From positions 128,001 to 192,000 of the forward strand of contig CAWHDR010000005.1 of the NCBI GenBank assembly GCA_963828165.1: a stretch of DNA of 64,000 nucleotides. Direction: 5' to 3'. A program made the position numbers and the translations under genes. This stretch comes from an uncultured Chloroflexia bacterium (GTDB lineage Bacteria > Chloroflexota > Limnocylindria > Limnocylindrales > CSP1-4). Under the pieces are notes generated by a model. It worked only from the letters and a program-made list of their open reading frames with translations. It did not search any database and was not told where the DNA came from. This document shows, piece after piece, positions 29 through 16,205 of this stretch (the stretch's first letter is position 1; the number at the start of each line of letters is the position of its first letter).

Positions 29-585
29 CAGAGCCGCGTCTGGTACTCCCCGGTCCGCGTGTCGACGCGGATGGTGTCCCCGGGCTCGACGAAGATCGGG
101 ACCTGGACGACGAGGCCGGTCTCGGTCGTGGCGGGCTTCCGAGCCCCGGACTGGGTGTCACCGGCGAAGCCCGGTTCCGTCTCGACCACCGCGAGATCAA
201 CCGTCACCGGCACCTCGACCCCGATCGTCTCGCCCTGGTAGCTCGTGCGATCAAGCGTCATGCCGTCCTTGAGGTACTGCGCCGTCTCGCCCAGCTGATC
301 GGCGGTGAGGATGAACTGGTCGTACGTGTCGTTGTCCATGAAGTGGTAGTCGCGGTCGTCGCGGTAGAGGAACTGGACCGGCCGCTTCTCCATCGACGCA
401 CGTGGCCACTTCGTCCCGGCCTGGAACGATCGCTCCACGGTCTGGCCGCGCTTGATGTTGCGCAGGGTGATGCGGACTTGCGCCGACCCTCGGCCCATCT
501 TGATGTGGTGGTAGTCGAGGATCTGCCAGAGCTCGCCGTCGAGCTCGATGGCGACGCCCTTCTTGAGTTCGCCGGTACTGATCAT
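28..585 (-). CDS. efp: Elongation factor P
   Basis: 185 aa with KOW/OB layout, KPATTETGLVVQVPIFV...IRVDTRTGEY C-terminal signature, tip loop KMGRG, AGGAG SD upstream. Confidence 0.97.
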   Translation of the reverse strand: MISTGELKKGVAIELDGELWQILDYHHIKMGRGSAQVRITLRNIKRGQTVERSFQAGTKWPRASMEKRPVQFLYRDDRDYHFMDNDTYDQFILTADQLGETAQYLKDGMTLDRTSYQGETIGVEVPVTVDLAVVETEPGFAGDTQSGARKPATTETGLVVQVPIFVEPGDTIRVDTRTGEYQTRL

Positions 586-653
586 GTGGTGGTGGGCTCC
601 TGGGGTCAGACCGCCGGGGCACGCGGCGACGGGGCCGGGGGTGGTCGGGGTCG

Positions 654-1984: not shown

Positions 1985-3217
1985 TCAGCCGGCTCCGACC
2001 ACCGTGACCTCGCTCGGGAACCGGGTCAGCCGCTCGACGCGGCCGGCCGGAGCATCGATGGCGATGAGGTCCTCGATGCGGACGCCCATCTGGCCATCGA
2101 GATAGACCCCGGGCTCGACGGAGAAGACCGTCGGGCTCGGGAGGGGTGTCTCCGCGGCGGCCTTCCCGAGTGACGGGGCTTCGTGGGTGGCGAGACCGAT
2201 GCCGTGCCCGGTGCTGTGGCCGAAGTGGTCGCCGTGTCCGCCTTTGTCGATGACCGCACGGGCGATCGCGTCCACGGCCCGGCCGCTGGGTATCTCCCCT
2301 CCTCCGCGCACGGCCTCATCGACCGCGCTGATCGCCGCCGCCTGGGCGCTGGCGACGAGCTCGTAGATCTCCAGATCCCGCGCCACCGGATCGCCCACGA
2401 ACAACGTGCGCGTCATGTCACTCCGGTACCCCTCGACCTGCGCCCCGAAGTCGAAGAGGAGCACCGAACGGTCCAGGACCGGTCGGTCGCCGGGGGCACC
2501 GTGGGGCAGGGCCGCTTCCGCACCTGACAGGCAGGCGACGTCGAACGCGAGCGCCTCCGCCCCACCGGTACGCATGTGCCATTCCAGCCGGAGCGCGAGC
2601 TCCGCCTCGGTCACGCCCGCACGGATCTCCGGCAGGAGCGCCGCGAGGGCCCGGTCGGCGACCGCACACGCCGCCGCGACGCGTTCCAGCTCGGCGGGCT
2701 CCTTGACCGCTCGATCGGCCTCGATCCAGCCCTCGACCGGGACGAGCTCGATGTCCGGCGCCGCGGCGGCCAGGCGCTCCCACGCCGCATGCGACACGAA
2801 CCCGGCCTCGACGCCGACCCGGCGAGCGCCGACGGACCGCACGATCTCGAGCCAGCGTTCGGGCAGGTTGCCGTAGGCCTCGAACAGGCGCGTGTCCGGG
2901 GCCTCGCGCCGGGCCTGGATCGTGTAGCGCGAATCGGCGAGGATCACGACCTCCTCACCCGAGACGAGGAACTGCCCGGAGTTCCCGGCGGACTTCTCCT
3001 CGCCCTCCGCGAGCGTGAACCCCGTCAGGTAGCGCATGTGCTCGCGCCGGACCCCGAAGTAGGCGTCGATGCCGGCGTCGGCGAACCTCGCGCGGAGGCG
3101 GCCGAGTCGAGCCGGGCGCGCCACACGATCGGACTCGGACCAGGCCTCCCGCTGCGCCGTGCCGGGTGGCGCGGCGAAATCCTCGGGGCGGGGCGACGCG
3201 CCCCGCGTCGCCCTCAT
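1985..3217 (-). CDS. Xaa-Pro aminopeptidase (M24B, creatinase N-domain)
   Basis: DFGAQVEGYRSDMTRT, HSTGHGIGLATHEAP and SVEPGVY...GVRIED motifs. The ATG at 3217 overlaps the mltG stop; the ORF-track extension to 3880 is spurious. Confidence 0.93.
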   Translation of the reverse strand: MRATRGASPRPEDFAAPPGTAQREAWSESDRVARPARLGRLRARFADAGIDAYFGVRREHMRYLTGFTLAEGEEKSAGNSGQFLVSGEEVVILADSRYTIQARREAPDTRLFEAYGNLPERWLEIVRSVGARRVGVEAGFVSHAAWERLAAAAPDIELVPVEGWIEADRAVKEPAELERVAAACAVADRALAALLPEIRAGVTEAELALRLEWHMRTGGAEALAFDVACLSGAEAALPHGAPGDRPVLDRSVLLFDFGAQVEGYRSDMTRTLFVGDPVARDLEIYELVASAQAAAISAVDEAVRGGGEIPSGRAVDAIARAVIDKGGHGDHFGHSTGHGIGLATHEAPSLGKAAAETPLPSPTVFSVEPGVYLDGQMGVRIEDLIAIDAPAGRVERLTRFPSEVTVVGAG

Positions 3218-4617
3218 CAGGTGTAGCCGTGTTCGCGCCGGTTCGCGTTGTGCTCGTCGAGATTCTTGGCGAAGACGTGCTTCCCGCTCTCGTCCGGGAT
3301 CGCGAGGAAATAGATGTACTTGTCGGCGGTGTCGGGATGCAGCGCCGCGTCGATCGATGCGAGGGTCGGCGTGTCGATCGGCGCGGGGATGAGGCCGGGC
3401 TGCGTATACGTCTGGAAGCCGAGCAGTTCGTCCGGGAGCACGATGTCCTTCATCCCGATGTCCTTGGGCACGGTCCAGAACCGGTAGTCCTTCCAGGTCT
3501 CGAACTCGAGATCCGAGAGGTTCATCGTGTCGACGGCATAGATGACCGTCGGGTCGGCATTGAAGATCTTGTTCCTGATCCCCGGGATGCCATCCAACCG
3601 GTTCTGGTACACCCCGGCGATCAGCGGCTTTTCCTCGTCGAGCTTGGCTTCGCGTTCGACGATCGAGGCGAGCGTCAGGACCTCGTAGAACGACAAGCCG
3701 CGCTCTTGCGGGACCGTCAGCTTGGCCTCCGTGACGGCGCCGATGAAGCCGTCGAGCATCCGGCGGATCAGCTCTTCGGGGGTGGTGTCGGGCAGCACGC
3801 GATAGGTCCCGGGCCAGAGGAACCCTTCCAGCGACGGTGTCGTGCCCTCCGGGACGTCCTCCAGGACCTTCTCCAGCCACGGGTAGTCCGCGAGCAAGGC
3901 GGCGGGCGGTTCCTTCGCCAGCTCGTAGAACTCGCGCGGGTCCATCTCCAGGGCCGGCACCGTCTGGAGCAACGCCGTGATCTGCTCAAGACGCAAGCCG
4001 GTTCGCAGCGCGATCTCCACGTAGGGCACCTCGGGCGGCGCGAGGAGCGCTACGACGAGCTGCTCCGGAGTCATGTTGCGACGAAGCACGAATGTTCCCT
4101 GCTGGAGATCGCCGGTCAGCTCACGGTCGCTGGCGATGAACACGAAGGCGCGTGGGTCCTTGATCAGGCCACCGGTGCCCAGACGCATGGCGATGGTGGT
4201 GGCCGTATCACCCTCCTCGACGAGGAACTCGACCTGCTCCGGGTCGTCGGACACGGGCTCCGTGAGCGATTCGCCGAGATCCTCGCGCACCAGATCGGCG
4301 ACGAACGGCAGGTTGAGCGCAGCCGGGCTGTCCGCGGCCCACGTGAGGATCGCGTTGTTGACCAGGGGTCGCAGCGCCGTCAGGCCGATGAGCAGCACGA
4401 GGCCGGCGAGGACCAGGGTGAACACGAGGAACTTGACGACGCCGCCCAGGCCGCTTCCGCCGCGGCCACCGCGCCGACCACCGCCGTTCCCATTGCCGGC
4501 TCTGCGTGACGGCTCGTAGGCCTCGGGCACGTAGTCGGTGGCATACGCGTCGGGGTCGAACCTTCGGCCGTGGGGCTGGCGCCGGTCGCGCGGGCGTCCG
4601 CCGGAGCGGATCGTCAT
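3217..4617 (-). CDS. mltG: Endolytic peptidoglycan transglycosylase (YceG family)
   Basis: N-terminal TM; LEGFLWPGTY, LTLASIVERE (catalytic Glu), IAGVYQNRL, ADPTVIY, YIYF...H.F..N..EH. Confidence 0.95.
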   Translation of the reverse strand: MTIRSGGRPRDRRQPHGRRFDPDAYATDYVPEAYEPSRRAGNGNGGGRRGGRGGSGLGGVVKFLVFTLVLAGLVLLIGLTALRPLVNNAILTWAADSPAALNLPFVADLVREDLGESLTEPVSDDPEQVEFLVEEGDTATTIAMRLGTGGLIKDPRAFVFIASDRELTGDLQQGTFVLRRNMTPEQLVVALLAPPEVPYVEIALRTGLRLEQITALLQTVPALEMDPREFYELAKEPPAALLADYPWLEKVLEDVPEGTTPSLEGFLWPGTYRVLPDTTPEELIRRMLDGFIGAVTEAKLTVPQERGLSFYEVLTLASIVEREAKLDEEKPLIAGVYQNRLDGIPGIRNKIFNADPTVIYAVDTMNLSDLEFETWKDYRFWTVPKDIGMKDIVLPDELLGFQTYTQPGLIPAPIDTPTLASIDAALHPDTADKYIYFLAIPDESGKHVFAKNLDEHNANRREHGYT

Positions 4618-5114
4618 GTGGTGGTCTCCGGTGTGCTGGGTCGGGGACCGGGCGCGGACCCGGCATGTCGCATGTCGAGGGCATCTTGCAGGATGACGGC
4701 GGCCGCTTCGCGGTCGACGCGCGCCCGGTACTCATCGCGCTGGTGACGCGACGGTGGACCGCCCGAGCGACCGCGTTTCATCGGTCCAAGGCGCGTCTCG
4801 GCGACGTGGCTGCTCAGCCGCTCATCGTGCAAGGTGATGATGACATGGTCGCCCAAACGGGCCCGCATGTCCTCCACCCATGCTCTGGTCAGCGCGGCCT
4901 GGGGACCCTCGTGCCCGGCCGCATCGATCGGGAGCCCCACCACCAGCTCGGTGATCTCGTGGGCATCGATGAGCGCGAGAAGCGCATCCGAATCCATGTC
5001 GGCGTGGCGGCCGCGGCGAAGCGTCGTCAGCGGACGCGCCCCGACGTCGGGGCCGTCGGCGATCGCGACGCCGATGCGTCGCTCCCCGAGGTCGAGGCCG
5101 AGCGCTCGGGTCAC
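4614..5114 (-). CDS. ruvX: YqgF/RuvX pre-16S rRNA-processing nuclease
   Basis: LGLDLGERRIGVA, VVGLP, DERLSS, VD..AAAVILQ; GTGA overlap with the upstream gene. Confidence 0.95.
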   Translation of the reverse strand: MTRALGLDLGERRIGVAIADGPDVGARPLTTLRRGRHADMDSDALLALIDAHEITELVVGLPIDAAGHEGPQAALTRAWVEDMRARLGDHVIITLHDERLSSHVAETRLGPMKRGRSGGPPSRHQRDEYRARVDREAAAVILQDALDMRHAGSAPGPRPSTPETTT

Positions 5115-7105
5115 GGCGACGCCTCGGGTTCGCCGCTCGGTGTCTGGTCCTGGGCGGGGTCGGAAGTCGTGATCTCGACCCGTGACTCGATCGTCGGGAC
5201 GGTGCCGACCCAATCGGGCCAGACCGTGAGCTGGGCATCGCCGTACCGAGCCAGGATCTCGCGCGCCTGGGCGAGCGGCTTGCCCATGATCTCGGCCTCG
5301 ATCGCATCCGAATCGAGCACGAGGACCTGGCGCGCCGTGACCACGACCGGGAAGGTGATGACGCCGCCGGAGATCTCGGCGGGTGCGGGGACCACTTGCC
5401 CCGAGCCAGGGATCAGCTCGTAGCCCGGATCGACGCTCGACGCGATCCGGGCCTCGGCCACGGTCTGGACGGGCGTCGTGTCCACCGCCACGACCGTCCC
5501 GGAGGCGGTCGCCGACAACTCGAAGGATTCGACCTCCTGTCCCACGAGCGTGGCCGGGTCGACGCCGTAGACCGGGGCGCCGAGGGTCTTGGTCTCAGGG
5601 AATACTGTCGTCGCGTCGCCAGGGAGGGCCGGGTCGTCCAGGCGCTCGTCGAACGCCGCGCTGAGCTGGTCGGTCAGGGCCGCGGTCGCCTCGTCGACGT
5701 CCTCCTGCTGGACCCGCGGGAACTCGGTCCGCTTGCCACCGGTCGTCGCCTCAGGATTGGTCACCTTGAGGAAGAATGGCTCTTCGTCGCGCGGGACCGT
5801 CGTGATCGCGCGCGGTTCGACGTTCCCTTCCGGGCCCGCATCCACCGCCGTGACCGTGACGGAAGCGCGGCTGGGGACGATCGTGAGCCCGACGAGCTCG
5901 GCAGGTGGGACACGCACCGCGCGGTCGGTGCGAAACCGGATCCCCGACCCCGTACTGACGACGCTGCCCCGCGGCACGGTGTTCGAGCTGGTCGGGTCGA
6001 GGTTGTCGAACCGGACGCTGCCCGTCGCCTTGGCCTCCTCGATCCGCTTGCCGGTGGCGGGAAACGTGTCGCTGGCTTCGACATCGATCGTGACCAGCTG
6101 GGCCGGCACGACCGGCGGCGTGGCGCCCGCATCCGGCGCCGTGGCGGTGACGCTCGCGACGATCCGCAGCGACTCGGGGCCGATGGTGCCTTCGCGGGGC
6201 GCGATGACGGCGGTCGCCGTCGGGAGGTACAGGAAGGCGGCCGCGCCACCAACGACGAGGGCGAGCGCGACCACGGCCAGCCCGATGACGAGCGGCGTAC
6301 GACCGATGGACGGGCGGAATGCCCGGCCGACCGCCTCCGGCCGGATCGCCCCGGGACGGTCCCCTTCGATGGCCGGCGTGTCCGCGACGACCCGCGCCGC
6401 CGGGATCGCGGCGGGCCCCCGACCGGCCCGTTTCGGTTCTCCCCTCGGCGGTGCGGACGACCGCGGTCCTCGGTCGGTCGCTGGGGTGGTACCCGCGTCC
6501 ATGCCTGGGGTCGCCATCCCAGCACCCGCGGCCGCGCCGCCAGCCATCGCCGCACCGGCAGACGCCGCAGACGCTGCGGCCAATGCCCCTGCGGCCGCAG
6601 CGGCGCCGGCGGAGGACCGGTCCTTGTCCGGCGTGGCGTCGGGCCGATCCTTGTCCGGCGCGCGCGCTTTCGACCTGGGCGTCGCGACTGTCTCGCTGAC
6701 CAGGGTCCCGTCCGTGAAGTCCTCATCGCCGATGGCGGCGTCGTCATCCGGCCCGTCAGCACCCGACGCCACGCCGGAAGCGACCGCCCCGGCCAAGAGC
6801 CCGGCCTCCCCCTCGGTCCCGGAGCGGTCCTCGTCCAATGAGGACTCGTACTCGCCGACGGTCGCAAAGATCGGCAGGCCCGCCGACGCGGCCAGTGCCC
6901 GCGTGGCGCCGTCTCCCGCCACGATCGAGAGCCGCTTGCCGTTGGTCAGCGCATCGCGCGCCAGGAGACGGAAGTTGATGCGCGAGGTGGCCACCCGCGA
7001 GCCGTACGGCAGCACGACCGCCACCCGGCTCCCCTCCGACGATCGGATGCGAGCCGCCGCCGAGGTGATCTCGTCATCGATGTCGAGGTAGATGACACCG
7101 GCCAT
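5111..7105 (-). CDS. Single-pass membrane protein with Baseplate_J/gp47-like extracytoplasmic domain
   Basis: About 90-aa N-terminal alpha/beta domain (IYLDIDDEITS...SRINFRLLAR), Ala/Pro-rich linker, TM (LVIGLAVVALALVVGGAAAFLYL), then ATGSVRF.N...VPRGSVV...VTVTAVDAGPEGNV...VTNPEATTGG. Confidence 0.8.
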   Translation of the reverse strand: MAGVIYLDIDDEITSAAARIRSSEGSRVAVVLPYGSRVATSRINFRLLARDALTNGKRLSIVAGDGATRALAASAGLPIFATVGEYESSLDEDRSGTEGEAGLLAGAVASGVASGADGPDDDAAIGDEDFTDGTLVSETVATPRSKARAPDKDRPDATPDKDRSSAGAAAAAGALAAASAASAGAAMAGGAAAGAGMATPGMDAGTTPATDRGPRSSAPPRGEPKRAGRGPAAIPAARVVADTPAIEGDRPGAIRPEAVGRAFRPSIGRTPLVIGLAVVALALVVGGAAAFLYLPTATAVIAPREGTIGPESLRIVASVTATAPDAGATPPVVPAQLVTIDVEASDTFPATGKRIEEAKATGSVRFDNLDPTSSNTVPRGSVVSTGSGIRFRTDRAVRVPPAELVGLTIVPSRASVTVTAVDAGPEGNVEPRAITTVPRDEEPFFLKVTNPEATTGGKRTEFPRVQQEDVDEATAALTDQLSAAFDERLDDPALPGDATTVFPETKTLGAPVYGVDPATLVGQEVESFELSATASGTVVAVDTTPVQTVAEARIASSVDPGYELIPGSGQVVPAPAEISGGVITFPVVVTARQVLVLDSDAIEAEIMGKPLAQAREILARYGDAQLTVWPDWVGTVPTIESRVEITTSDPAQDQTPSGEPEASP

Positions 7106-7106
7106 C

Positions 7107-8369
7107 TCAGACCTTCATCGCGCGCAGGACGCGCCGCAGGGCGACGTCGAGGGCATCTTCCGACGTCTGCAGCTCGATCGCCTGGTACGCCAGCCCAAGC
7201 GGCGTGACGTCCTGCTGGTCCACGAGCAACGCCGTCGCATCGATCACGGTCTCGATCAGGTTCGGCGCCATGACGATGACCTCGGGCGGCCGGGCGAAGG
7301 GCATCGGCTTCCAGAATGCCTCGGCTGCCAACGCCGCCTGCACCTCCGGGAGCCGCGAGCCACCACCGCACAGGTAGATGCGCGACGGCAGCAGGTCGCC
7401 CCCGGACAGCTCCTCCATCACGAGCTCGACGCCGGCCGCCCAGACCCGTACGTCGTCGCCGATGATCCCGGCCACCTCGTCGCGCGACTCGACCGGCAGC
7501 CCGCGCGCGTAATCGACCTTGAGCGCCTCGGCTCGGGGAAACGGCAGGTCGAGCCGGTCGGCGAGCGACTTCGTGAACGCCCGACCGCCGAGCGCGAACA
7601 TCCGCGTCCCCTCGATGCCACCCTGGCGCACGAGGGCCACGTCGGTCGTCCCGCCACCGACATCGACGAACAGCGCTCCGCCCTGGCGGACCTGCTCGAG
7701 GCCGAGAACGCGTGCCACCGCATAGGGCTCGGCGACGATCTCGAGCAGCTCCAGGTCCAGCTGCGAGGCCACGCTCTGCAACGCCCCGAGGTGCACGAGT
7801 GGCGCGAACGCGTTGAAGATCCCGATCTTCACGTGGCGGCCCTGGAATCCCACGGGGTTCGTGAGCGCGTAGCCGTCGATGGCGGCGCCAGTCACGGCCG
7901 CGTGGACCAGCCTGACGTCGACGTGCGGCAGCCCTGTCTCCCACGTGATCGCCCGTTCGGCCTCGCGGAGGGCCTCGCGCTGCACGGAGTCGATGAGCTT
8001 CTGGAGCTCGTTCTCGGTGATCGGCTGGTCCGGCTTCTTGCGTTCCTGGCTGTGGGTCGTGGTGAAGCCCTTCACCAGCTCCCCGGCGATGCCGATCACC
8101 ACCTGGCTCGGCCGAAAGCCCGCCATCTCCTCGGCTTCCTGCAGCGCGATCGAGCAGTTGTCGACCACGGCCGCGATATCCGCGACCGTTCCAGACTGCA
8201 TGTGCGCGAGGCCCTGCCGCTTGCGGCCCACGCCGCGGACCGTGCCCAGGCCCGAATCGTCGATCTCGAAGACGAGGGCCTTCGCGAACTCGGTGCCGAT
8301 GTCGAGCGCGGTGCAGACGGCGAGGCTGTCGCCCTCATCCCGTTGCCAGATCTTGCGCCAGAAGGCCAC
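7107..8369 (-). CDS. FtsA-like actin-fold ATPase
   Basis: ALDIGTEFAK (phosphate 1), AEPYA, VDVGGGTTD (phosphate 2), GGRAFT, AEALK, YLCGGGSRL. The GTG start at 8369 is inferred. Confidence 0.88.
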   Translation of the reverse strand: MAFWRKIWQRDEGDSLAVCTALDIGTEFAKALVFEIDDSGLGTVRGVGRKRQGLAHMQSGTVADIAAVVDNCSIALQEAEEMAGFRPSQVVIGIAGELVKGFTTTHSQERKKPDQPITENELQKLIDSVQREALREAERAITWETGLPHVDVRLVHAAVTGAAIDGYALTNPVGFQGRHVKIGIFNAFAPLVHLGALQSVASQLDLELLEIVAEPYAVARVLGLEQVRQGGALFVDVGGGTTDVALVRQGGIEGTRMFALGGRAFTKSLADRLDLPFPRAEALKVDYARGLPVESRDEVAGIIGDDVRVWAAGVELVMEELSGGDLLPSRIYLCGGGSRLPEVQAALAAEAFWKPMPFARPPEVIVMAPNLIETVIDATALLVDQQDVTPLGLAYQAIELQTSEDALDVALRRVLRAMKV

Positions 8370-8430
8370 GTTCAGGCGTTCCAGCCGGGCACGAGGGAAA
8401 GCCCCGCGAGCCGCGCGAGCGACGGCATCG

Positions 8431-11202
8431 TCACCCGGCCTCGAGCTGCCGGACGATCGCTCCACGGATCGAGGCGAGCGCGTCCGCGATACCCGCGCGG
8501 TCGGTGCCCATCCCCTGCGCCATCTGGGGGCGGCCGCCGCCCTTCGCCCCGATCGGCGCCGCCGCGGCCTTGACGAGTTCGCCCGCCGAGATCCCGCGTT
8601 CGACGAGATCGTCCGACACCGTGACGAAGAGCTGCGGGGCGTCCGCATCGAGCAGCAGGGCGATGACGCCCGACTCGAACGCTGCGCGGACCGCCTTTGC
8701 TGCGGCCTTGAGCGCCTCGGTCAATTCGTACGGGATCGCGGCCGCGACCAGCCGGACGCCCGGCGCGACCTCTTCCGATCTCGCGGCCAGCTCGGTGGGC
8801 TGCGGCACACCCGAGGCCGCGCCCGCCTTCAGGCGGCGCTTCGTCTCTCGGAGCTCGTCCAGCAGCGCCGCGATGCGGTCCTCGACGGCGTCGATCGTCT
8901 GTGCACCGACCGCTTCGACGACGCGCTCCAGCGTCTCGCTGCGCTCTCGCGCGAGTCGATCGGCCGCGGCCCCGGTGACGGCCTCGATGCGGCGCATCCC
9001 GGAACCGATGCTCCGCTCCCCGGTGATGTTGAAGCCACCGATCTGACCGGTCGCCCGGCAATGGGTCCCACCGCACAGCTCGAAGCTGTAGTCCTGGACT
9101 CGGATGGTCCGGACGGTCTCGCCGTATTTCTCGTCGAAGAAGGCGTCGGCTCCCTGCTCGATGGCTTCGGCCATCGGCATGAACGCGATCGTCACGGGGC
9201 GATCGTCGCGAACGATGCCGCGGACCTCGTCTTCGATGGCCTGCTTCTCGTCGTCCGTCAATGCCCGGTCGAACGGGTAGTCGAACCGCAGGCTGTCGGG
9301 GGTCACGAGCGACCCCGCCTGTCGCGCCCCCTCCCCGACCACGTTGCGCAACGCCCGGTGAAGCAGGTGGGTGCCCGTGTGGTTGCGCATCGTGTGGGCG
9401 CGACGTTCGGCATCGACGATCGCCTCGACGGTCTCGCCGACGCGTAGCCGGCCGTGGAGCGTGCCACGTTGCACGATCAAGCCGCCGACCGGCTTCTGCG
9501 TGTCGGTCACGGTGAACAGCTCGCTGCCGCCGCCCGGTTCTCGGATCGTCCCCTGGTCTCCGACCTGCCCACCGCCCTCCGCGTAGAACGGGGTGCGGTC
9601 GACTACCACCTCGGCTGCGCCGTTCCCGGTCAGCTCGTCGAATTCCACGCCGTCGCGCACGATCGCCACCACCCGGCCCTCGGCGGTGGTCGTCTCGTAG
9701 CCCATGAACGCGGTGTCGCCGTGGCGTGCCTGGATGGCGCTGTACAGCGACGTCGATTCCGCGTGCCGGGCGAGGTCGGCCTTCTTGCCCGAACGGCTGC
9801 GCTCCCGCTGCTCCGCGAGCGCGTCCTGGAACCCGGCAAGGTCGACCGTAAACCCGTATTCCGCGGCGAGCTCGACGGTCAGGTCGACCGGGAACCCGTA
9901 CGTGTCATGCAGCCGGAACGCGACGTCGCCGTCGAGGGCCGGTGCATCGCCCGGCAGGTCCTCCGGCCGGCGTCCGATGACGCGCTCGGGCGTCGTCCCG
10001 CCGAACGCATCGCGGATGGCCCCGTCGAGCAGCTTCGAGCCGGCGTCCAGGGTCCGGGCGAACTGGGCTTCCTCGCGCAGGATCGTGACCAGGATCGCGT
10101 CCCGCTTCTCGGCCAGGTGCGGATAGGCCTCGGCCATGGTGTCGATCACGACCGTCGCCGTCTCGGCCATGAACGGCTCGCGCCGACCCAGCAGCCGGCC
10201 GTGGCGAACGGCTCGACGCAGGATGCGACGCAGGACATAGCCCCTCCCCTCATTGCCCGGAAGGACGTCATCAGCGATGAGGAACGTGACGGCGCGGGAG
10301 TGGTCCGCGATGACCTGGTAGCTGAAACGCTCCTGCTCGAAGGCGTCCGGGTCGTGACCGAGCAGCTCCTGCATCCGGGCGTGGATCGGCGTGAACACGT
10401 CCGTGTCGTAGTTGGTCGGTACCTGCTGGAGGACGCTCGCGAGGCGCTCGAGACCCATCCCGGTGTCCACGCCTGGGGCCGGCAGCGGCACCAGCGAGCC
10501 GTCGGGCTGCAGATCGAACTCCATGAACACGAGGTTCCAGATCTCGAGCCAGCGCGGGCACTGCTCGCTGTGGTCGGGCACGCAATGCGGGCCCTCGCTG
10601 AGGTGTTCTCCGCGGTCGAAGTGGATCTCGCTGCACGGCCCGCACGGCCCGACGTCGGCCATGCGCCACCAGTTCTTCTCGTCGCCCTTGGGGAAATCGC
10701 CCCAGCGGACCAGGCGCTCTTCGGGCAGGCCGATCTCGTCGCGCCAGATGTCGAAGGCGACGTCGTCCGTCGTGTAGGTCGTGGCCGCCAGCCGTTCGCC
10801 CGGGATGCCCAGGTCGCGCGTCAGGAAGTCCCACGCGTAGTGGATCGCCTCGCGCTTGAAGTAGTCGCCGAAGCTCCAGTTGCCGAGCATCTCGAAGAGC
10901 GTGTGGTGACGCGGCGTGCGGCCGACCTCCTCGAAGTCGTTGTGCTTGCCGGCCACGCGCAGGCAGCGCTGGTAGTCGACCGCGCGCTGGTAGCTGCGCG
11001 TCTCGGCGCCGGTCAGGACGTCCTTGAACTGGACCATCCCGGAGTTCGTGAACAGGAGCGTCTGGTCACCCGCCGGCACCAGGCTGGCGCTGGGCACGGG
11101 CGTGTGGCCTCGCTCGGCGAAGAACTCGATGAAGCGCCGCCGGATCTCGCCGGACGGCAGGGACGTGATCCGGGGATCGCGGGTGACGGGTGGGGTCGGC
11201 AT
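8431..11202 (-). CDS. alaS: Alanine--tRNA ligase
   Basis: LLFTNSGMVQFK, HHTLFEMLGNWSFGDYFK, DTGMGLER, NHTGTHLL, ELCGGTH and GGGRPQMAQG motifs. Confidence 0.98.
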   Translation of the reverse strand: MPTPPVTRDPRITSLPSGEIRRRFIEFFAERGHTPVPSASLVPAGDQTLLFTNSGMVQFKDVLTGAETRSYQRAVDYQRCLRVAGKHNDFEEVGRTPRHHTLFEMLGNWSFGDYFKREAIHYAWDFLTRDLGIPGERLAATTYTTDDVAFDIWRDEIGLPEERLVRWGDFPKGDEKNWWRMADVGPCGPCSEIHFDRGEHLSEGPHCVPDHSEQCPRWLEIWNLVFMEFDLQPDGSLVPLPAPGVDTGMGLERLASVLQQVPTNYDTDVFTPIHARMQELLGHDPDAFEQERFSYQVIADHSRAVTFLIADDVLPGNEGRGYVLRRILRRAVRHGRLLGRREPFMAETATVVIDTMAEAYPHLAEKRDAILVTILREEAQFARTLDAGSKLLDGAIRDAFGGTTPERVIGRRPEDLPGDAPALDGDVAFRLHDTYGFPVDLTVELAAEYGFTVDLAGFQDALAEQRERSRSGKKADLARHAESTSLYSAIQARHGDTAFMGYETTTAEGRVVAIVRDGVEFDELTGNGAAEVVVDRTPFYAEGGGQVGDQGTIREPGGGSELFTVTDTQKPVGGLIVQRGTLHGRLRVGETVEAIVDAERRAHTMRNHTGTHLLHRALRNVVGEGARQAGSLVTPDSLRFDYPFDRALTDDEKQAIEDEVRGIVRDDRPVTIAFMPMAEAIEQGADAFFDEKYGETVRTIRVQDYSFELCGGTHCRATGQIGGFNITGERSIGSGMRRIEAVTGAAADRLARERSETLERVVEAVGAQTIDAVEDRIAALLDELRETKRRLKAGAASGVPQPTELAARSEEVAPGVRLVAAAIPYELTEALKAAAKAVRAAFESGVIALLLDADAPQLFVTVSDDLVERGISAGELVKAAAAPIGAKGGGRPQMAQGMGTDRAGIADALASIRGAIVRQLEAG

Positions 11203-11244
11203 CGGCCGCAATGGTACCGAACCGGACCGGGCCATCTCTGTTAC

Positions 11245-11332
11245 GCATCCGCTACCCCGCTTTCGGAAGCGCTGATGCCCTGGCCAGCCGCGATCGGTCA
11301 GGGTCGTTGCGTGCGATACGCAGCACAAGGAG
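11245..11332 (+). ncRNA. Candidate multi-hairpin leader upstream of a small Zn-ribbon gene
   Basis: GCATC/GATGC enclosing CGCTT/AAGCG; CCCTGGCC/GGTCAGGG; GTTGCGT/ACGCAGC directly before AAGGAG. Confidence 0.35.
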
Positions 11333-11337
11333 ATGTC

Positions 11338-11520
11338 ATGGCCTTTGTCCGAAAGTGCGAACAATGCGGGAACGTCGACGCTCGCCAGAACTGGTCATCT
11401 GCGGCAGAGGCCGCGGACCAGGGAGCGTTCCAGAAGTGGACGTGCCCCACTTGTGCCTGGACGGAGTTCGACCTCGTCGAGGAGTCCGAGGCGACGCAGG
11501 CCGCCGCGCCCTCCCGCTGA
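11338..11520 (+). CDS. 60-aa zinc-ribbon protein
   Basis: AAGGAG SD; MAFVRKCEQCG...WTCPTCAW has two CxxC motifs; followed by a hairpin. Confidence 0.8.
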   Translation: MAFVRKCEQCGNVDARQNWSSAAEAADQGAFQKWTCPTCAWTEFDLVEESEATQAAAPSR

Positions 11521-11703: not shown

Positions 11704-11820
11704 CTAGCGCGGCGGGCTGCCCCGAAGGCTGCGCCAGATCCGCGACCCGGCGATCACCGCACCGATCAACGCCCCGATCGTCAGGCCGCGCAGGAACCTG
11801 GCCTGCTCGGGCGTGCTCAC
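11704..11820 (-). CDS. 38-aa single-TM small protein (absent from the ORF track)
   Basis: GTGA overlap with the upstream stop; [38 protein letters not shown]. Confidence 0.6.
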
Positions 11821-12098
11821 GTCCGCCGCTCCGCGGATGGGCCGAGAACCGCAACGACGGACACGAGCCCGATGCCGACCCAGGCCACGATCGACGCGCC
11901 GAGCAGCTGGTAGTCGCCGAGCGTCGCGAACTCGATGCCGAGTCGACCGAAGATCGCGTCACCGGCCCACGCGCCGAGGATGGCCGCCCCCACGAGCAAG
12001 GGCAGGCGGCCGCCCGCGGTGCCGCGGATCGCCACGGACAGGGCCGTGTGGAAGATGCCGACCAGCACGGACAGGACCAGCGAGGGCTCCAGGCTCAC
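11817..12098 (-). CDS. Small three-TM membrane protein
   Basis: GTGA overlap with the mnmA stop; 93 hydrophobic aa with AILGAWAG-type glycine-rich helices. Confidence 0.75.
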
Positions 12099-13232
12099 GC
12101 CGGAGCAAGGATCCCGGCGCGATCGGGCGAGGCCGTCTCTGACGTGGCCGCCCGCTCCGGCGCCTCGATGCGACCGCCGCCGATGACCTCGTCGCCGTCG
12201 TACAGCACGGCGGCCTGCCCGGGGGCTGCGGCCCAAACGGGCGTCTCGGTGACGACGGCCCAGCGCTTGTCGCCGAGGGAGCGCACGGTCGCGGGGATGA
12301 GCGTGGCGCGGTGGCGGATCCGGACCGTGGCCCGGAACGGTGAGACGGGCACGTCCGGCGCGATGAACGATGCCCGCTCGATCGTGAACTCGCGCGATCT
12401 CGAGGTCCTCACGGCGGCCCAGCTGGATCGTGTTGGAGCGCGGGTCGATGCGCGAGACGTAGCGCGGCTCGCCCAGCGCGACCCCCAGGCCCTTGCGCTG
12501 GCCCACGGTGTAGCCGGCCGATCCCCCGTGCTTACCAACGCTCGCACCGTCCACATCCAGCAGGGGCCCGGCCTCCGGCGTCCATCCGGCGCGCTCCCGC
12601 AGCGCGTCCCGGTAGTCACCGCCGGGCACGAAGCAGATCTCCTGGCTCTCGGGCTTGTCCGCGGTCACCAGCCCCAGTGAACGCGCCACGGCGCGCACCT
12701 CGGGCTTCGTCAGCTCCCCAAGGGGGAAGCGCGCATGCTCGAGCTGGTCGGCTCGCAGGCCGTACAGGAAATACGTCTGATCCTTGTCCTCGTCGCGTGC
12801 CCGCAGCAGTCGCGCCCGCCCGTCTTCGTCGACGGCCCGGCGAGCGTAGTGACCGGTCGCGACCGCCTCGCACTCGTACAGGTGACGAGCTCGGCCGAGC
12901 AGCGCCCCGAACTTCACGTAGGTGTTGCAGTCGACGCACGGGCTCGGTGTCCGGCCGTCGAGGTAGGCGTCGAGGAAGGGCGCGATCACCCCGGCATCGA
13001 ACTCGCGCTCGAGGTTCATGACGTAGAACGGGATGTCGAGCTGCGCGGCGACGCGCCGGGCGTCATCGGCGGCATCGAGCGAGCAGCAGCTCTTCTTGAA
13101 CTCCGAATACGTGTCGGCGACGTCGTGCAGGCGCATCCAGACCCCGACGACGTCGTGACCTTGCTCGCGCAGGAGCGCCGCGGCGACCGACGAGTCGACC
13201 CCGCCGGACATCGCCACCAGGATGCGGCTCAT
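12095..13232 (-). CDS. mnmA: tRNA 2-thiouridylase MnmA, with a +1 frameshift near 12398 (likely sequence error)
   Basis: [39 protein letters not shown] and [10 protein letters not shown] motifs. The C-terminal APGQAAVLY...GGG is in the 12095-12619 frame. Confidence 0.93.
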
Positions 13233-14413
13233 ACCCCGATCGCCTGCCCGAGCGGGTCGCTGGCGACGCTCGCACCCCCGACGCGCATGGACGCGATGAC
13301 CCGGGGCACGACCTCGCAGGCGACGGCGACCTCCTCGTCGGTCGTCGTCCGTCCCAGGGACAGGCGCAGCGCCCCGCGGGCCTCTTCTTCCGGGTAGCCC
13401 ATCGCGGTCAGCACGTGACTGACCTCGGTCGAGCCGGTCGTACACGCCGAGCCCACGGAACAGGCGATCCCCTCGAGGTCCAGCGACATCGACACCGACG
13501 CCCCGTCCGTGTCGCGCGCGATGATCGAGAGCAGCCCTGGCAGCCGCTGCTTGGGATGGCCGGTCGTCTCCGTGCCGGGCGTGGCCAGGATCGCCTTGGT
13601 GAGCCGCTCGCGATGGCGGCGCAGGCGGCCGACCGTCTCCGATCGCTCGGAACACGACAGGTCGTACGCGGCGGCCAGGCCGACCGCCCCGGCCACGTTC
13701 TCCGTGCCCGCGCGGCGGTGGCGCTCCTGGGTGCCGCCCTGCTGCTGGGCGAGGATGTGGGTGCCGTGGCGGACGAACAGCGCGCCGACGCCCTTGGGCC
13801 CCTCGAACTTGTGGGCCCCGAGCGACACGAGGTCGGCATCCAGGGTGCTCAGGTCCAGATCGACGTACGGGGCCGCCTGGACGGCATCGACATGGAGGAG
13901 GACGCCCTTGCGCGCACGAACGACCTTCGCGATCTCGGCCATCGGCTGGATCGTGCCGACCTCGTTGTTGGCGAGCATGATCGAGACCAGGATCGTGCGG
14001 TCCGTGAGGGCCGCCTCGAGCTGGTCCGGATCCACCCGCCCATAGCGGTCGACCGGGAGCTCGACGATCTCGAAGCCGAACTTCTCGAGGTGGCCCAGCG
14101 TATGCCCCACGGCGTGGTGCTCGATGGCCGACGTCACGATCCGATGGCCGTGCGCCTTGCCGGCCCAGGCCGCGCCCTTGAGCGCGAGGTTGTTCGCTTC
14201 GGTGCCACCCGACGTGAAGACGATCTCGCGCGGCTCGGCGTGGAGCCGGGTCGCGACCCGCTCGTGCGCTTCGTCGAGGGCCGCCCGGGCCGTGCGGCCG
14301 AACGCATGCGCCGACGACGGATTGCCGAAGGCTTCCGTCAGGTACGGGAGCATCGCATCGAGGACCTCGCGCCGGAGCGGGGTCGTCGCCGCGTGGTCGA
14401 GATAGATCGCCAT
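13229..14413 (-). CDS. iscS: Cysteine desulfurase (IscS/NifS family)
   Basis: [44 protein letters not shown]; coupled to mnmA. Confidence 0.95.
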
Positions 14414-14480: not shown

Positions 14481-16205
14481 CTAGGGCGCGTACTCGAGCG
14501 CCCGCTTCAGGAACGCCGCCATCTGCCCGCGCGTCACGCTGGATGTCGGGCAATACCGCCGTGTCCCGCAGCCGCCGGTGATGCCCGCGGCAGCCAGTCG
14601 GTTGATCGAGGACTCGCCGGTCTTGCCGTCGTCGTCATCGAAGAAATCCGTGCTCGTCGCGGGCGGATCGAGCTCCTTGTCGAGGAAGATCGCCATCTCG
14701 GCGCGGGTGACGCGGCGGGTCGGGCAATAGAGCGTGGGGCTACCGCAACCGCTCGTGATGCCGGCCGCCCGCAACGCGTTGATCGAGGATTCGCCGGAGC
14801 GACCCTCATCGTCGGTGAAATAGTCGGTGGCGGTCGAGGGATGATCGAAGGCGCGCACGAGGAAGATCGCCATCTGCTCCCGCGTGACGGCTGCCGACGG
14901 GCAGTACCGGCCGCTCCCGCACCCGACCGTGATGCCCTCGTACAGGATCCAGTGGATGCTGTCGAGGAACGTGGAGGTCGCGATGTCCTTGAACTCGGGG
15001 GCGATGACCCGATACAGGGAGCCGTTGAGATCGGTCAGGTAGAGCTCGCCGGATTCGCTCTCGCCGAACGAGCTGATGTTGAGACTGGTGTCCCTGCGAA
15101 CGGTGATCGTGCTGCTGCCATTCCCCATCGTCCAGATGCGGCCGCTGCAGAAGTCGCCGAACACGTAGAGACCCTGCAGGTCACGGTGCGTCCCGCGGTA
15201 GACGTAGCCGCCGGTGATCGAGCAGCCCAGTGAGTGCGTGTACTCGGCGACCGGCAGGATGTCATTGGCCGGGGGCGTACAGCCCGAGACCCGGCAGTGC
15301 TTGCCTTCCATGACGTCCCAGCCGTAATTCCCGCCGCCCGCGAAGCTGTTCAGTTCGCGGTTGATCTCCTCGTAGCGGTCCTGACCGACATCGGCGATGA
15401 AGAGATTCCCGTTGGCGCGGTCGAAGGCGATGCGCCACGGGTTTCGCATCCCCCAGGCCCAGATCTGGTCGGCGCCGGTCTTGCCCACGAACGGGTTGTC
15501 GTCCGGGATCGCGTAGTTCGGGTGGCTGGAGGGGCCAGCGTGATTGACATCGATCCGCAGGATCTTGCCGAGCAGGACATTGCGGTCCTGGGCGTTGTTA
15601 CCCGGGTCGTTGGCGCCGCCCCCATCGCCCACGGCGATGTAGAGGTAGTTGTCGGGGCCGAAGGCGAGGCCACCGCCGTTGTGGTTCGTATTTGCGCTGT
15701 GCTCGATGCGCAGCAGCGGGACCTCGGTCGTCAGGCTCACGGCGGTCTTCGTTGAGTTCGCGGTCAGCTTACTGACGATGATGTCGCCATCGGTCCTGGT
15801 GTAGTAGACGTACAGCAACCGGTTGGTCTCGAAGTTGGGATGGAACGCCAGGCCGAGCAGGCCTCGCTCGCCACCGGCCCTGATCCTCGAACTGATGTTG
15901 AGGAAGGTGCCCGTCACTGCGCCACCCTTGACGACGCGAACCCGGCCGCCGCGCTCCACGACGAACAGGCGGCCGGAGCCATCCTCGGCATGGGTCACCC
16001 CGAGCGGGCTGCTGAGGCCGCCGGTGACCTTGACCACGGTCAGCTGTCCCGAAACGAGCGCCGCTGGCTCGATGGTCTCGGTGGTGCGCTCAACGGGCGC
16101 CGCGACCTGGGGCTCGTGTGCGGCCACGGGGATCACGCTGACCACGGTGGCGGCAGCCGCCAGGATGGCCGGCAGGACGGTTCGCAGGTGGCGTCGGGTC
16201 ATCAT
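14481..16205 (-). CDS. Secreted PQQ-dependent sugar dehydrogenase (GSDH beta-propeller) with C-terminal SLH repeats
   Basis: Signal peptide; GERGLLGLAFHP, NHNGG, GMRNPWR, DVGQ..YEEIN, GGNYGW; three GIT.GC....YCP...VTR.QMA.FL SLH repeats. Confidence 0.9.
   Translation of the reverse strand: MMTRRHLRTVLPAILAAAATVVSVIPVAAHEPQVAAPVERTTETIEPAALVSGQLTVVKVTGGLSSPLGVTHAEDGSGRLFVVERGGRVRVVKGGAVTGTFLNISSRIRAGGERGLLGLAFHPNFETNRLLYVYYTRTDGDIIVSKLTANSTKTAVSLTTEVPLLRIEHSANTNHNGGGLAFGPDNYLYIAVGDGGGANDPGNNAQDRNVLLGKILRIDVNHAGPSSHPNYAIPDDNPFVGKTGADQIWAWGMRNPWRIAFDRANGNLFIADVGQDRYEEINRELNSFAGGGNYGWDVMEGKHCRVSGCTPPANDILPVAEYTHSLGCSITGGYVYRGTHRDLQGLYVFGDFCSGRIWTMGNGSSTITVRRDTSLNISSFGESESGELYLTDLNGSLYRVIAPEFKDIATSTFLDSIHWILYEGITVGCGSGRYCPSAAVTREQMAIFLVRAFDHPSTATDYFTDDEGRSGESSINALRAAGITSGCGSPTLYCPTRRVTRAEMAIFLDKELDPPATSTDFFDDDDGKTGESSINRLAAAGITGGCGTRRYCPTSSVTRGQMAAFLKRALEYAP

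Follow-up and report, generated by a model that had tools for sequence, protein, structure and literature searches.

Bacterial actins act through bitopic membrane partners, as exemplified by the FtsA-FtsN, MreB-RodZ and PilM-PilN pairs. FtsA polymerises and is anchored to the membrane by a C-terminal amphipathic helix, and MreB, a membrane-bound actin, is bound by the folded cytoplasmic domain of RodZ, which is itself bitopic and has a linker and, outside, a beta-rich domain. Proteins of the gp6/J kind, for their part, form rings in phage. Here we describe a pair of adjacent genes from an uncultured Chloroflexia bacterium (GenBank assembly GCA_963828165.1, contig CAWHDR010000005.1, positions 128,001 to 192,000; this stretch of 64,000 nucleotides is hereafter the window), one encoding an FtsA-like actin (P0005) and the other a bitopic protein (P0002, the partner) whose external domain contains folds of the phage baseplate wedge. 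We postulate, with moderate confidence, that the two genes form an ancient, vertically kept envelope module of Chloroflexota and Patescibacteria, in which the actin would position, cluster or switch the external domain, likely in wall growth or division.

The FtsA-like actin and its bitopic partner

The elements of the pair are listed below; the stop codon of the actin gene (TGA, 7109-7107) is separated by one base from the start codon of the partner gene (ATG at 7105).

7107-8369, minus strand: FtsA-like actin paralog P0005, 420 amino acids (aa), GTG start (open reading frame (ORF) and translation; Pfam FtsA 2e-14)
7110-7154, minus strand: C-terminal amphipathic helix of the actin, residues 406-420 (model helix 406-418, hydrophobic moment, conservation)
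5111-7105, minus strand: bitopic partner P0002, 664 aa (ORF and translation)
6812-7105, minus strand: cytoplasmic N-domain of the partner, residues 1-98, STAS/SpoIIAA-like alpha/beta fold (pLDDT 94-98; VIA matches)
6302-6811, minus strand: disordered cytoplasmic linker rich in Ala, Gly and Pro, residues 99-268 (pLDDT below 50, composition)
6230-6298, minus strand: single transmembrane helix, residues 270-292, N-in/C-out (model helix, hydropathy)
5156-6220, minus strand: ectodomain, residues 296-650, four beta-rich domains (pLDDT above 90; Foldseek, VIA)
5726-6040, minus strand: Baseplate_J/GlxA-type beta-barrel with GNV motif, residues 356-460 (PF04865, phrog_6, VIA)

Pfam recognises in P0005 only the C-terminal FtsA domain (PF14450, 2e-14), with no match to SHS2_FTSA at E values up to 0.01. 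The protein falls short of the FtsA equivalog TIGR01174 (104.7 bits, cut-off 175.85) and NF007009 (55.5 bits against 409), of the PilM model TIGR01175 (28.7 bits, cut-off 133; the neighbouring genes are not pilN or pilO either), and of the MreB model TIGR00904 (27.3 bits, cut-off 365.75) as well as a further MreB model (30.7 bits against 293); the EutJ, MreB, PilM and DnaK models score it far below the FtsA model. The phosphate and adenosine motifs, which a preliminary description made from the letters of the window had called complete, are present and invariant in 22 orthologs (phosphate-1 D23, G25 and T26; phosphate-2 D236, G238, G239 and T242; adenosine G335-G337). The start at 8369 is backed by the length of the homologs, since 117 of the 120 actin homologs among the matches listed are exactly 420 aa long. 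The AlphaFold model of the actin (pLDDT 88.3, pTM 0.86) matches the FtsA structures of Vibrio maritimus, E. coli, S. aureus and T. maritima over about 400 (393-418) columns, the best values being TM-scores of 0.81-0.86 (V. maritimus FtsA) and E 2e-33; PilM is the second-best fold match (0.72-0.75), and EutJ and MreB are lower. As modelled, the actin has an FtsA-like build, with the inserted 1C-type (SHS2) domain and no 1B. Both of its ends had been described as amphipathic-looking. At the C-terminus this holds: the LRRVLRAMKV end has a hydrophobic moment of 1.5-1.8, where the 14-mers of P0005 average 0.80 (sd 0.41), and the motif is kept as MRRVxRAMKV in the Chloroflexota consensus and as ILRRxxRxMQx in the Patescibacteria-type consensus, so that, by analogy with FtsA, this helix is probably a membrane anchor. 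The N-terminal AFWRKIWQR, by contrast, is basic and poorly predicted (pLDDT 39).

The actin is not the FtsA of its cell. In the same genome, a canonical ftsA (SHS2 and FtsA domains) lies directly upstream of ftsZ on contig C1, and there are two true mreB genes (466 and 478 bits), one of them followed by mreC. The reading of the window actin as the sole FtsA is thus rejected; it is an extra paralog, the fourth actin-fold gene of the genome, and its description as an orphan with no ftsZ, pilN or mreC beside it is upheld. P0005 scores only 51 bits against the FtsA of its own genome and 257 bits (32% identity over the full length) against P0281, a protein of candidate phyla radiation type. In a quick maximum-likelihood tree of 56 rows (midpoint-rooted for drawing, its rows lacking PilM and EutJ), 22 Chloroflexota and 21 Patescibacteria-type actins fall on one side of a branch with a Shimodaira-Hasegawa-like approximate likelihood ratio test (SH-aLRT) value of 98, the seven canonical FtsA group together (SH-aLRT 99), as do the six MreB (SH-aLRT 100), and two divergent rows (L035, L041) sit on long branches. 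By this sequence comparison, the actin groups as a family apart from FtsA and MreB. A second FtsZ_C match in this genome (111.7 bits, G000:C1:991337-991618, minus strand), at a large distance from ftsA-ftsZ, hints at another FtsZ-like gene.

The partner belongs to a family with at least 1465 homologs in a large protein collection, and the architecture first proposed for it, a cytoplasmic domain, a disordered linker, one transmembrane helix and an external domain, is confirmed by the model and by hydropathy. The model has pLDDT above 90 for residues 1-98, the transmembrane helix and residues 296-650. The sole hydrophobic stretch lies at 271-294 (Kyte-Doolittle 19-residue maximum 2.65 at 272-290) and has an Arg-rich flank before it; since the positive charges precede the helix, the N-domain is placed in the cytoplasm and the large domain outside. 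The linker is variable in length and poorly alignable among homologs. In VIA comparisons, the N-domain resembles the STAS domain 4xs5_A (Z 8.5, root-mean-square deviation (rmsd) 3.1 over 97 residues), a stressosome chain (Z 8.0), SpoIIAA (Z 6.6) and many further STAS chains (Z 6.3-8.0), where, as the tool itself states, a Z near 8 can reflect a common arrangement. We call this domain STAS-like rather than a STAS member, because no Pfam family matches it in 46 members; NCBIfam has no model for it either, and neither collection matches the ectodomain outside the barrel.

The ectodomain, described earlier as Baseplate_J-like, does contain such folds. Its top Foldseek matches are baseplate wedge proteins (E 1.5e-8 to 1e-4); PF04865 matches residues 358-461 (3.4e-7, 30.3 bits, cut-off 21.1; profile positions 21-113 of 255) and is matched by 41 of the 46 partner family members; and the barrel matches the phrog_6 baseplate wedge at 1.2e-11. 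Against the PDB, the family profile finds 9euf_C (phi812 ORF62, 1.5e-5) and Mu gp47 (2.7e-4), with the GNV motif common to both sides and N428 invariant in the partner family. In VIA, the barrel matches the Streptomyces enzyme GlxA (5lqi_A, Z 14.3), 8kea_b (14.2), 9gb2_G (14.2) and Mu gp47 (11.7), with rmsd 1.8-3.0 over 90-100 residues, baseplate J/gp47 and GlxA matching equally well. A second, C-terminal stretch aligns to the wedge proteins of diffocin, phi812, Pa193, XM1, Milano and T4 (gp6), over 136-147 residues within 354..648. The two-domain wedge alignments have rmsd values of 31-49 A; the same two domains stand in the same order and are set differently. For the N-terminal helical part of the wedge proteins no match is listed, in a comparison in which the model exceeds 400 residues and single domains may be missed. 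Thus, the ectodomain and the wedge protein are truly homologous in at least two domains, the barrel and the C-terminal domain, and it is over these that the likeness was seen. A further part of the ectodomain resembles the pilus-binding domain of phage IKe G3P (4eo0, Z 7.3), a value at which, as the tool states, folds may be alike by chance.

These matches raise the question of whether the locus is left over from a prophage, a tailocin or a contractile injection system, or is a defence gene derived from such an element. Pfam Baseplate_J, phrog_6 and the structural matches to wedge proteins would all fit such an origin. However, Baseplate_J has a single match in the whole 3.3-Mb genome (87.7% complete), and Pfam finds no other phage genes around the pair, the neighbours among the window proteins being housekeeping genes, as the preliminary description had noted. 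Moreover, the partner carries a transmembrane helix and a cytoplasmic domain, which wedge proteins lack, it keeps a fixed place between housekeeping genes in two phyla, it occurs as one copy per genome in most of the 216 positive Chloroflexota genomes considered below, and the same barrel occurs in GlxA, a cellular enzyme. A prophage remnant is rejected on these grounds, and we give the whole class of phage-derived explanations hardly any credence.

Partner size varies among families. In one Chloroflexota family (L016, L017, L018) the partner is about 466 aa long and lacks the STAS-like N-domain, the profile match starting at position 54 or later, and no actin ortholog occurs in any of the 17 genomes of this family sampled. 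In another, with genomes of 4-7 Mb (L128-L131, L137-L139, L146, L147), it reaches about 870-1000 aa, with a much longer cytoplasmic linker and a profile match in two pieces. A single TGA was reported inside many partner matches; in L030 the gene really ends at this stop, the alignment having continued beyond it, and these matches give no evidence of recoding.

The preliminary description had proposed modelling the actin with the N-domain. The complex of the actin with partner residues 1-100, predicted in three runs with an own alignment supplied for each protein and with three controls, supports this contact: ipSAE was 0.70, 0.71 and 0.69, and 0.00 in all controls, and the runs had 95% or more of the contacts in common, with a partner pLDDT of 84 or higher. 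The mark set by the tool is reached by 116 of 157 solved complexes and by 2 of 215 mismatched pairs, counts that are rough, with own alignments used. To our knowledge there is no solved complex of this kind, so model memory is an unlikely source of the prediction. On the actin side, the predicted interface comprises residues 258-272 and 302-317, which, by our reading of the model, would be the 2B-side helices, together with 58-59, 97-98 and 143-147; on the N-domain side it comprises helices 12-21, 37-51 and 67-74. In the 15 actin-associated partners, the majority residue is more frequent at the N-domain interface than in the rest of the domain (0.58 vs 0.51), whereas in the 18 actin-less partners it is less frequent (0.34 vs 0.44), a comparison that is descriptive, as kin are not independent. 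The prediction thus supports a model in which the actin docks on the cytoplasmic N-domain of the partner.

The same contact would also suit an actin that does not form filaments and serves as an ATP switch or chaperone-like regulator in the style of EutJ or Hsp70, the pair then being a signalling or assembly device. The STAS/SpoIIAA-like fold of the N-domain is used in partner-switching, the actin also has matches, of lower rank, in the EutJ and Hsp70 families, and the predicted docking is on the 2B side, which in FtsA is a ligand site (4a2a, FtsA with an FtsZ peptide). On the other hand, the best structural and sequence matches of the actin are FtsA and PilM, which are membrane-acting, and conservation over the whole surface (74-89%) while the neighbours drift may be the kind typical of polymer-forming proteins. 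Hence, we consider a pure switch unlikely and retain the envelope module, in which the actin would probably be oligomeric or filamentous.

Distribution of the pair in Chloroflexota and Patescibacteria

The preliminary description had mentioned a similar gene pair in Chloroflexota and Patescibacteria. Close homologs of the window proteins carry names that put the window in Ca. Limnocylindria. Genome-level profile searches covered a fixed sample of 301 Chloroflexota genomes, whose lists were compared by hand, and contig-level searches added Patescibacteria-type metagenome loci. The sample includes five genomes flagged as unpublished (G038, G145, G173, G227, G272), whose effect on any one count is no more than a few. 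The partner was found in at least 216 of the 301 genomes and MltG in 264; the actin was matched in 93 at E values up to 1e-25, or in 92 once G268, whose match is a canonical FtsA by the tree, is removed. All 92 actin-positive genomes have the partner. MltG, in turn, is present in 213 of the 216 partner-positive genomes, the three exceptions being fragmented assemblies of families otherwise having it, and the partner is missing from 34 of the 37 MltG-negative genomes, which are small genomes. Among Chloroflexota, Dehalococcoidales and SAR202 have lost wall-synthesis genes, according to a taxonomy paper (PMC10608941).

Gene order points the same way as co-occurrence. In 40 partner loci from many families, mltG lies downstream in 39, ruvX in 35, alaS lies upstream in 31, and the actin directly precedes the partner in 21; the other 19 loci have no room for an actin. 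Of 80 Limnocylindria-type actin loci listed, with no other phylum among them, 79 have the partner as the next gene and the 80th ends at the actin. Among 20 further actin loci from other families, the partner is next in 18, runs off the contig end in one (G012), and one is the FtsA of G268. Where room exists, adjacency is therefore complete in each set (21/21, 79/79 and 19/19 loci). Within the 80 Limnocylindria-type loci, the actin has the highest identities of the locus (74-89%), compared with 45-86% for AlaS, 46-86% for the N-domain and 32-61% for the ectodomain. A contig of 2 kb that holds the actin and the beginning of the partner gene (L067, genome G301) comes from a metagenome-assembled genome record labelled Ca. 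Methylomirabilota, yet falls in the sample of the window's phylum; the label or the binning is doubtful.

Co-occurrence is one-sided, however: 124 of the 216 partner-positive genomes lack an ortholog of the actin, and in five such genomes checked genome-wide the best match was the canonical FtsA at 26-30% identity. Consequently, the partner is the core of the module and the actin an accessory. Loci of families lacking the partner complete the picture, and three nested states can be distinguished, namely alaS-ruvX-mltG, the same run with the partner, and the run with both actin and partner. The original claim that the two genes co-occur is thus sustained from the side of the actin, in the 92 genomes and in the kept adjacency, and has to be narrowed from the side of the partner. 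In three genomes of two families with divergent partner matches (L152-L154 in G011, G231 and G295; E 1e-20 to 1e-37), mltG stands alone, with no alaS, ruvX or partner within 7 kb of it, so that there the run is broken up.

Relatives of the actin extend well beyond Chloroflexota. Its profile matches 784 clusters (50% identity) at E values up to 1e-30 among 1.84 billion representatives, and among the best 150 of these clusters many have a low-G+C-type amino-acid make-up and the same C-terminal motif. P0281 is one of these, and its relatives are assigned by name to Ca. Portnoybacteria, Torokbacteria, the Parcubacteria group and the Patescibacteria group. A scan of metagenome contigs with 21 such actins gave 80 loci (G+C 0.30-0.62) that carry no taxon labels and are called Patescibacteria-type from the query set. 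The partner is the next gene in 64 of them, nine have no room, and seven have room without the partner following directly, one of these having it 2.8 kb further on; adjacency thus amounts to 64 of 71 testable contigs. The gene directly upstream is alaS in 22 of the 80 loci, 52 of which have more than 2 kb of upstream sequence, and ruvX and mltG follow the partner in at least 17, as judged with single distant queries. Of the 18 loci with mltG downstream of the partner, 7 have mreB next to mltG. Together with the named P0281 relatives and the published Southlakia table discussed below, these loci verify the distribution first mentioned.

Several details accompany these loci. The seven mreB genes, of about 350 codons (L190, L194, L198, L211, L212, L216 and L233; for example L190:9725-10777), extend the run to actin-partner-ruvX-mltG-mreB, and four of them fall with MreB in the tree. 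P0281 itself reads GDRMTD at residues 238-245, where the family has the phosphate-2 motif GGGTTD; the motif is intact in the other 20 aligned sequences, and P0281 may no longer hydrolyse nucleotides. In a protein atlas, Ca. Saccharimonadota clusters score 0.90-0.91 for the whole partner, which we take as a lead only; the N-domain alone finds only short Chloroflexota clusters (0.84-0.87). Of ten cluster representatives examined for names, two had one for their cluster, and one of the two names, Ca. Dormibacteraeota, is taxonomic.

The distribution can also be read as showing neighbours by history only, the partner being a structural protein or adhesin of the wall or surface layer and the actin having another client. 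The many genomes with the partner and no actin, the L016-L018 family in which even the N-domain is gone, the fast evolution of the ectodomain, as in surface-exposed proteins, and the nearby SLH-domain proteins, which indicate a surface-layer-type envelope, all agree with this view. It has difficulty, though, with an actin that, in the Chloroflexota genomes sampled, always comes with the partner (92/92) and lies directly upstream of it wherever there is room, with the adjacency kept in 64 of 71 Patescibacteria-type contigs and the spacing of one nucleotide here, and with a complex prediction that passed its controls and whose interface is conserved in actin-associated partners alone. We therefore rate mere neighbourhood as improbable, somewhat more so than the switch discussed above, and keep to a functional pair. 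Overall, of the earlier interpretation, the co-occurrence, an actin that is not the sole FtsA, the baseplate-J-type domains and the presence in Chloroflexota and Patescibacteria have stood; within the module the actin is an accessory.

The gene run around the pair and its counterpart in Southlakia

The pair lies in a region of about 70% G+C, in a minus-strand run with the following neighbours.

8431-11364, minus strand: alaS (Pfam tRNA-synt_2c 3e-190; alanyl-tRNA synthetase domains)
4614-5114, minus strand: ruvX, YqgF-type nuclease, likely GTG start at 5114, within the ORF 4614-5213 (Pfam RuvX 7.6e-28; TIGR00250)
3217-4617, minus strand: mltG, YceG-family endolytic transglycosylase (Pfam YceG 3.9e-60; TIGR00247)
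11817-14413, minus strand: mnmA-type tRNA thiolase and class-V aminotransferase of cysteine desulfurase type (Pfam)

The membership of RuvX and MltG in their families is clear, as both exceed the cut-offs of their models (TIGR00250, 68.5 bits against 43.25; TIGR00247, 137.7 bits against 103.4, with 204 bits in Pfam). The junctions are tight: the partner TGA (5113-5111) overlaps the ruvX GTG (5114-5112) in a 4-base GTGA, the ruvX TGA (4616-4614) overlaps the mltG ATG (4617-4615) in a 4-base ATGA, and the gap between the alaS stop and the actin start is 61 nucleotides. Next after mltG in the run is an M24 peptidase gene. A promoter and terminator scan of the run found no promoter-like sites and no terminator-like sites on the minus strand, the sole terminator-like site being on the plus strand. 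The coordinates, gene order, overlaps through mltG and spacing of one nucleotide are all in the sequence as first reported. The coupling to the alaS-ruvX-mltG run, also claimed there, is borne out insofar as the pair sits inside it with overlapping genes; the run itself, as weighed below, is older than the pair.

Farther upstream of alaS, Pfam identifies the mnmA-type thiolase, the class-V aminotransferase, two SLH-domain proteins, bipA, aspS and hisS. The SLH-domain proteins are of secreted type (14481-16205 and 16209-17492, both on the minus strand), one with a glucose/sorbosone dehydrogenase domain and the other with a lysyl-oxidase-like domain, and suggest a surface-layer or secondary-wall-polymer anchoring system in this organism. 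Two database gene calls fuse neighbouring genes of such runs, namely P0008 (763 aa), in which the partner is joined to RuvX (PF04865 and PF03652), and P0125 (573 aa), in which the actin is joined to the DHHA1 end of AlaS; both are probably over-long ORF calls, like the 513-aa ORF at 7107-8648 in the window. For window positions 4600-8700 no RNA dataset was listed, and small word shares (0.05-0.15) were found in five soil DNA runs.

A counterpart of the run exists in the saccharibacterium Southlakia epibionticum. There, Table S1 of Wang et al. 2023 (PMC10633639) gives the order cysteine desulfurase (0660), YdcF (0659), MnmA (0658), AlaS (0657), followed by a "pilus assembly protein PilM"/K03590 (0656, 1284 nucleotides), a "baseplate J/gp47 family protein" (0655, 1671 nucleotides), RuvX (0654) and MltG (0653), which from cysteine desulfurase through MltG is the order of the window. 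The same tables place a canonical FtsA-FtsZ pair (0174-0175) and a PilM (SEML1_0104) elsewhere in that genome. For 0655, Table S2 of the same source lists a SpoIIaa-like domain (6-105), a beta-barrel, a G3P pilus-binding-like domain and the gp6 C-terminal domain III, and the same four domain types were found independently for P0002, including 4eo0 at Z 7.3. Following Meheust et al. 2019, the tables flag 0655 and 0656 alike as core and as Patescibacteria-enriched families. Neither gene is taken up outside the tables: the main text of PMC10633639 has 0 occurrences of "baseplate", "PilM" or the locus tags.

Transposon sequencing (Tn-seq) data for this locus at T0, T1 and T2 are given in the same tables (PMC10633639). 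The partner 0655 is scored NE/ES/ES and placed in essential class II, with normalised reads of 373, 34 and 24; the actin 0656 is scored NE/NE/GD, with reads of 2427, 660 and 221; RuvX is scored NE/ES/ES and MltG NE/NE/NE.

The label PilM deserves attention, since an alignment pair of PilM/PilN type, belonging to a machine for pili, competence or secretion, would likewise consist of an actin followed by a bitopic protein. PilM is the second-best fold of the window actin, the layout resembles pilM-pilN, some database names for these actins read "pilus assembly protein PilM", and part of the ectodomain is like IKe G3P. Nevertheless, the actin scores far below the PilM cut-off, the run holds no pilN, pilO, pilin, ATPase or secretin genes, and the G3P likeness is within the chance range. 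Furthermore, Saccharibacteria have pilM beside pilN and pilO in pilus loci elsewhere, according to PMC12206443, and Southlakia has its separate PilM, SEML1_0104 (PMC10633639, Table S2). A pilus-type pair is thus very unlikely, and we return to the envelope module.

Proposed role and comparison with known systems

In the mechanism that we propose, the core would be the bitopic protein, with its STAS-like cytoplasmic domain, flexible linker, transmembrane helix and a four-domain ectodomain lying in the wall zone. The actin would sit on the inner membrane face through its C-terminal amphipathic helix and dock with its 2B-side surface on the STAS-like domain, and in an ATP-dependent manner, probably as an oligomer or filament, it would position, cluster or switch the external domain, following the logic of FtsA-FtsN, PilM-PilN and MreB-RodZ. 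Membrane binding and polymerisation of the actin may be expected from its family likeness. The most likely field of action would be growth or division of the peptidoglycan wall, to which the FtsA-type fold, the setting beside ruvX and mltG (and mreB), the near confinement of the partner to genomes with MltG and the fitness cost in Southlakia all point, though none of them amounts to proof. By analogy with gp6/J, the ectodomain may form oligomers or rings. The fold may have passed from phage to cell, the direction implied by the word "domesticated" in the preliminary description, or the other way.

We also put forward, as a speculation that we hold to be rather unlikely in its full form, that the ectodomain is a membrane-anchored cellular homolog of the wedge, whose C-terminal domain would link copies of it into wall-zone rings or arcs, organised from inside by a third, unrecognised actin of the FtsA family. 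This would be a machine needed for growth, passed down from an ancestor that Chloroflexota and Patescibacteria shared, and the baseplate wedge may in its origin be connected with it by descent.

Several observations weigh against a module for wall growth or division. Beside the 124 genomes in which the partner manages without an actin, most actin-less partners keep the N-domain, which must therefore have an actin-independent job. The co-absence of partner and MltG (34/37) is weak evidence, as it rests on a few related small-genome lineages. The alaS-ruvX-mltG run is contiguous without the pair in 4 of 4 loci of partner-negative families; the pair was thus inserted into an older run, its adjacency to mltG is weak evidence of shared function, and the link to mltG may be an accident of the insertion site. 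In Southlakia, MltG is non-essential in Tn-seq while the partner is essential after T0 (PMC10633639), hence the role of the partner is not simply to serve MltG, and insertions in 0655 may be polar on the essential ruvX-0654. Finally, the likeness to the Southlakia locus rests on annotation, gene order, lengths and domain lists rather than on a sequence alignment.

If the proposal is true, it adds a further actin/bitopic pair, with an actin distinct from FtsA, PilM and MreB and an ectodomain of phage-baseplate type, and gives a non-viral context to a fold regarded as phage-specific. The pair is widespread in two very large and poorly studied groups, in one of which, Patescibacteria, genomes are tiny and little is dispensable, and the partner is essential after T0 in the only available Tn-seq data (PMC10633639 tables). 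The two genes go under the database names "cell division protein FtsA", "FtsA domain-containing", "PilM", "rod shape-determining protein", "baseplate J/gp47" and "hypothetical"; such mislabelled genes would turn into a testable hypothesis on envelope organisation in monoderm-type cells, and, as genetic tools exist in Southlakia, the key experiments are feasible. Full-text literature searches found no description of the actin-partner pair; the supplements of PMC6744442 may list both families.

Compared with the known systems, the pair shares with FtsA-FtsN/FtsZ an actin fold with a 1C-type domain and no 1B, a C-terminal amphipathic helix and a bitopic partner predicted to dock. Unlike FtsA, the window actin falls in a separate clade, below TIGR01174 and with no SHS2_FTSA match, and is not beside ftsZ, and unlike FtsN the partner offers a folded 98-residue domain instead of a short peptide and has no SPOR domain. 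With PilM-PilN it shares the succession of an actin-fold ATPase gene and a bitopic gene, whereas the external fold of PilN differs from the ectodomain of the partner, the pair here has no pilus genes nearby and its actin is below the PilM cut-off. Moreover, PilN binds through a short N-terminal peptide (PDB titles 5eou, 2ych). The proposed layout is that of MreB-RodZ, and mreB follows mltG in seven Patescibacteria-type loci; still, the actin is not MreB, by score and tree, and the N-domain is STAS-like and not a helix-turn-helix. The wedge proteins J, Mu gp47 and T4 gp6 have in common with the partner the GNV barrel (Z 11.7-14.2, rmsd 1.9-3.0 over 90-100 residues) and the C-terminal domain in the same order, but differ in domain orientations, and no match was listed for their N-terminal helical part; the partner has an added transmembrane helix, linker and cytoplasmic domain and comes without the baseplate gene set (tube, sheath, spike, gp25-like, gp46/I-like). 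The closest counterpart is SEML1_0656/SEML1_0655, with the same gene order, similar lengths (427 and 556 aa) and the same four partner domain types, although it belongs to a different phylum and was compared by tables, not by alignment. Taken together, the actin subfamily is new and the architecture of the partner previously undescribed, while the general kind, an actin-fold ATPase with a bitopic partner, is known.

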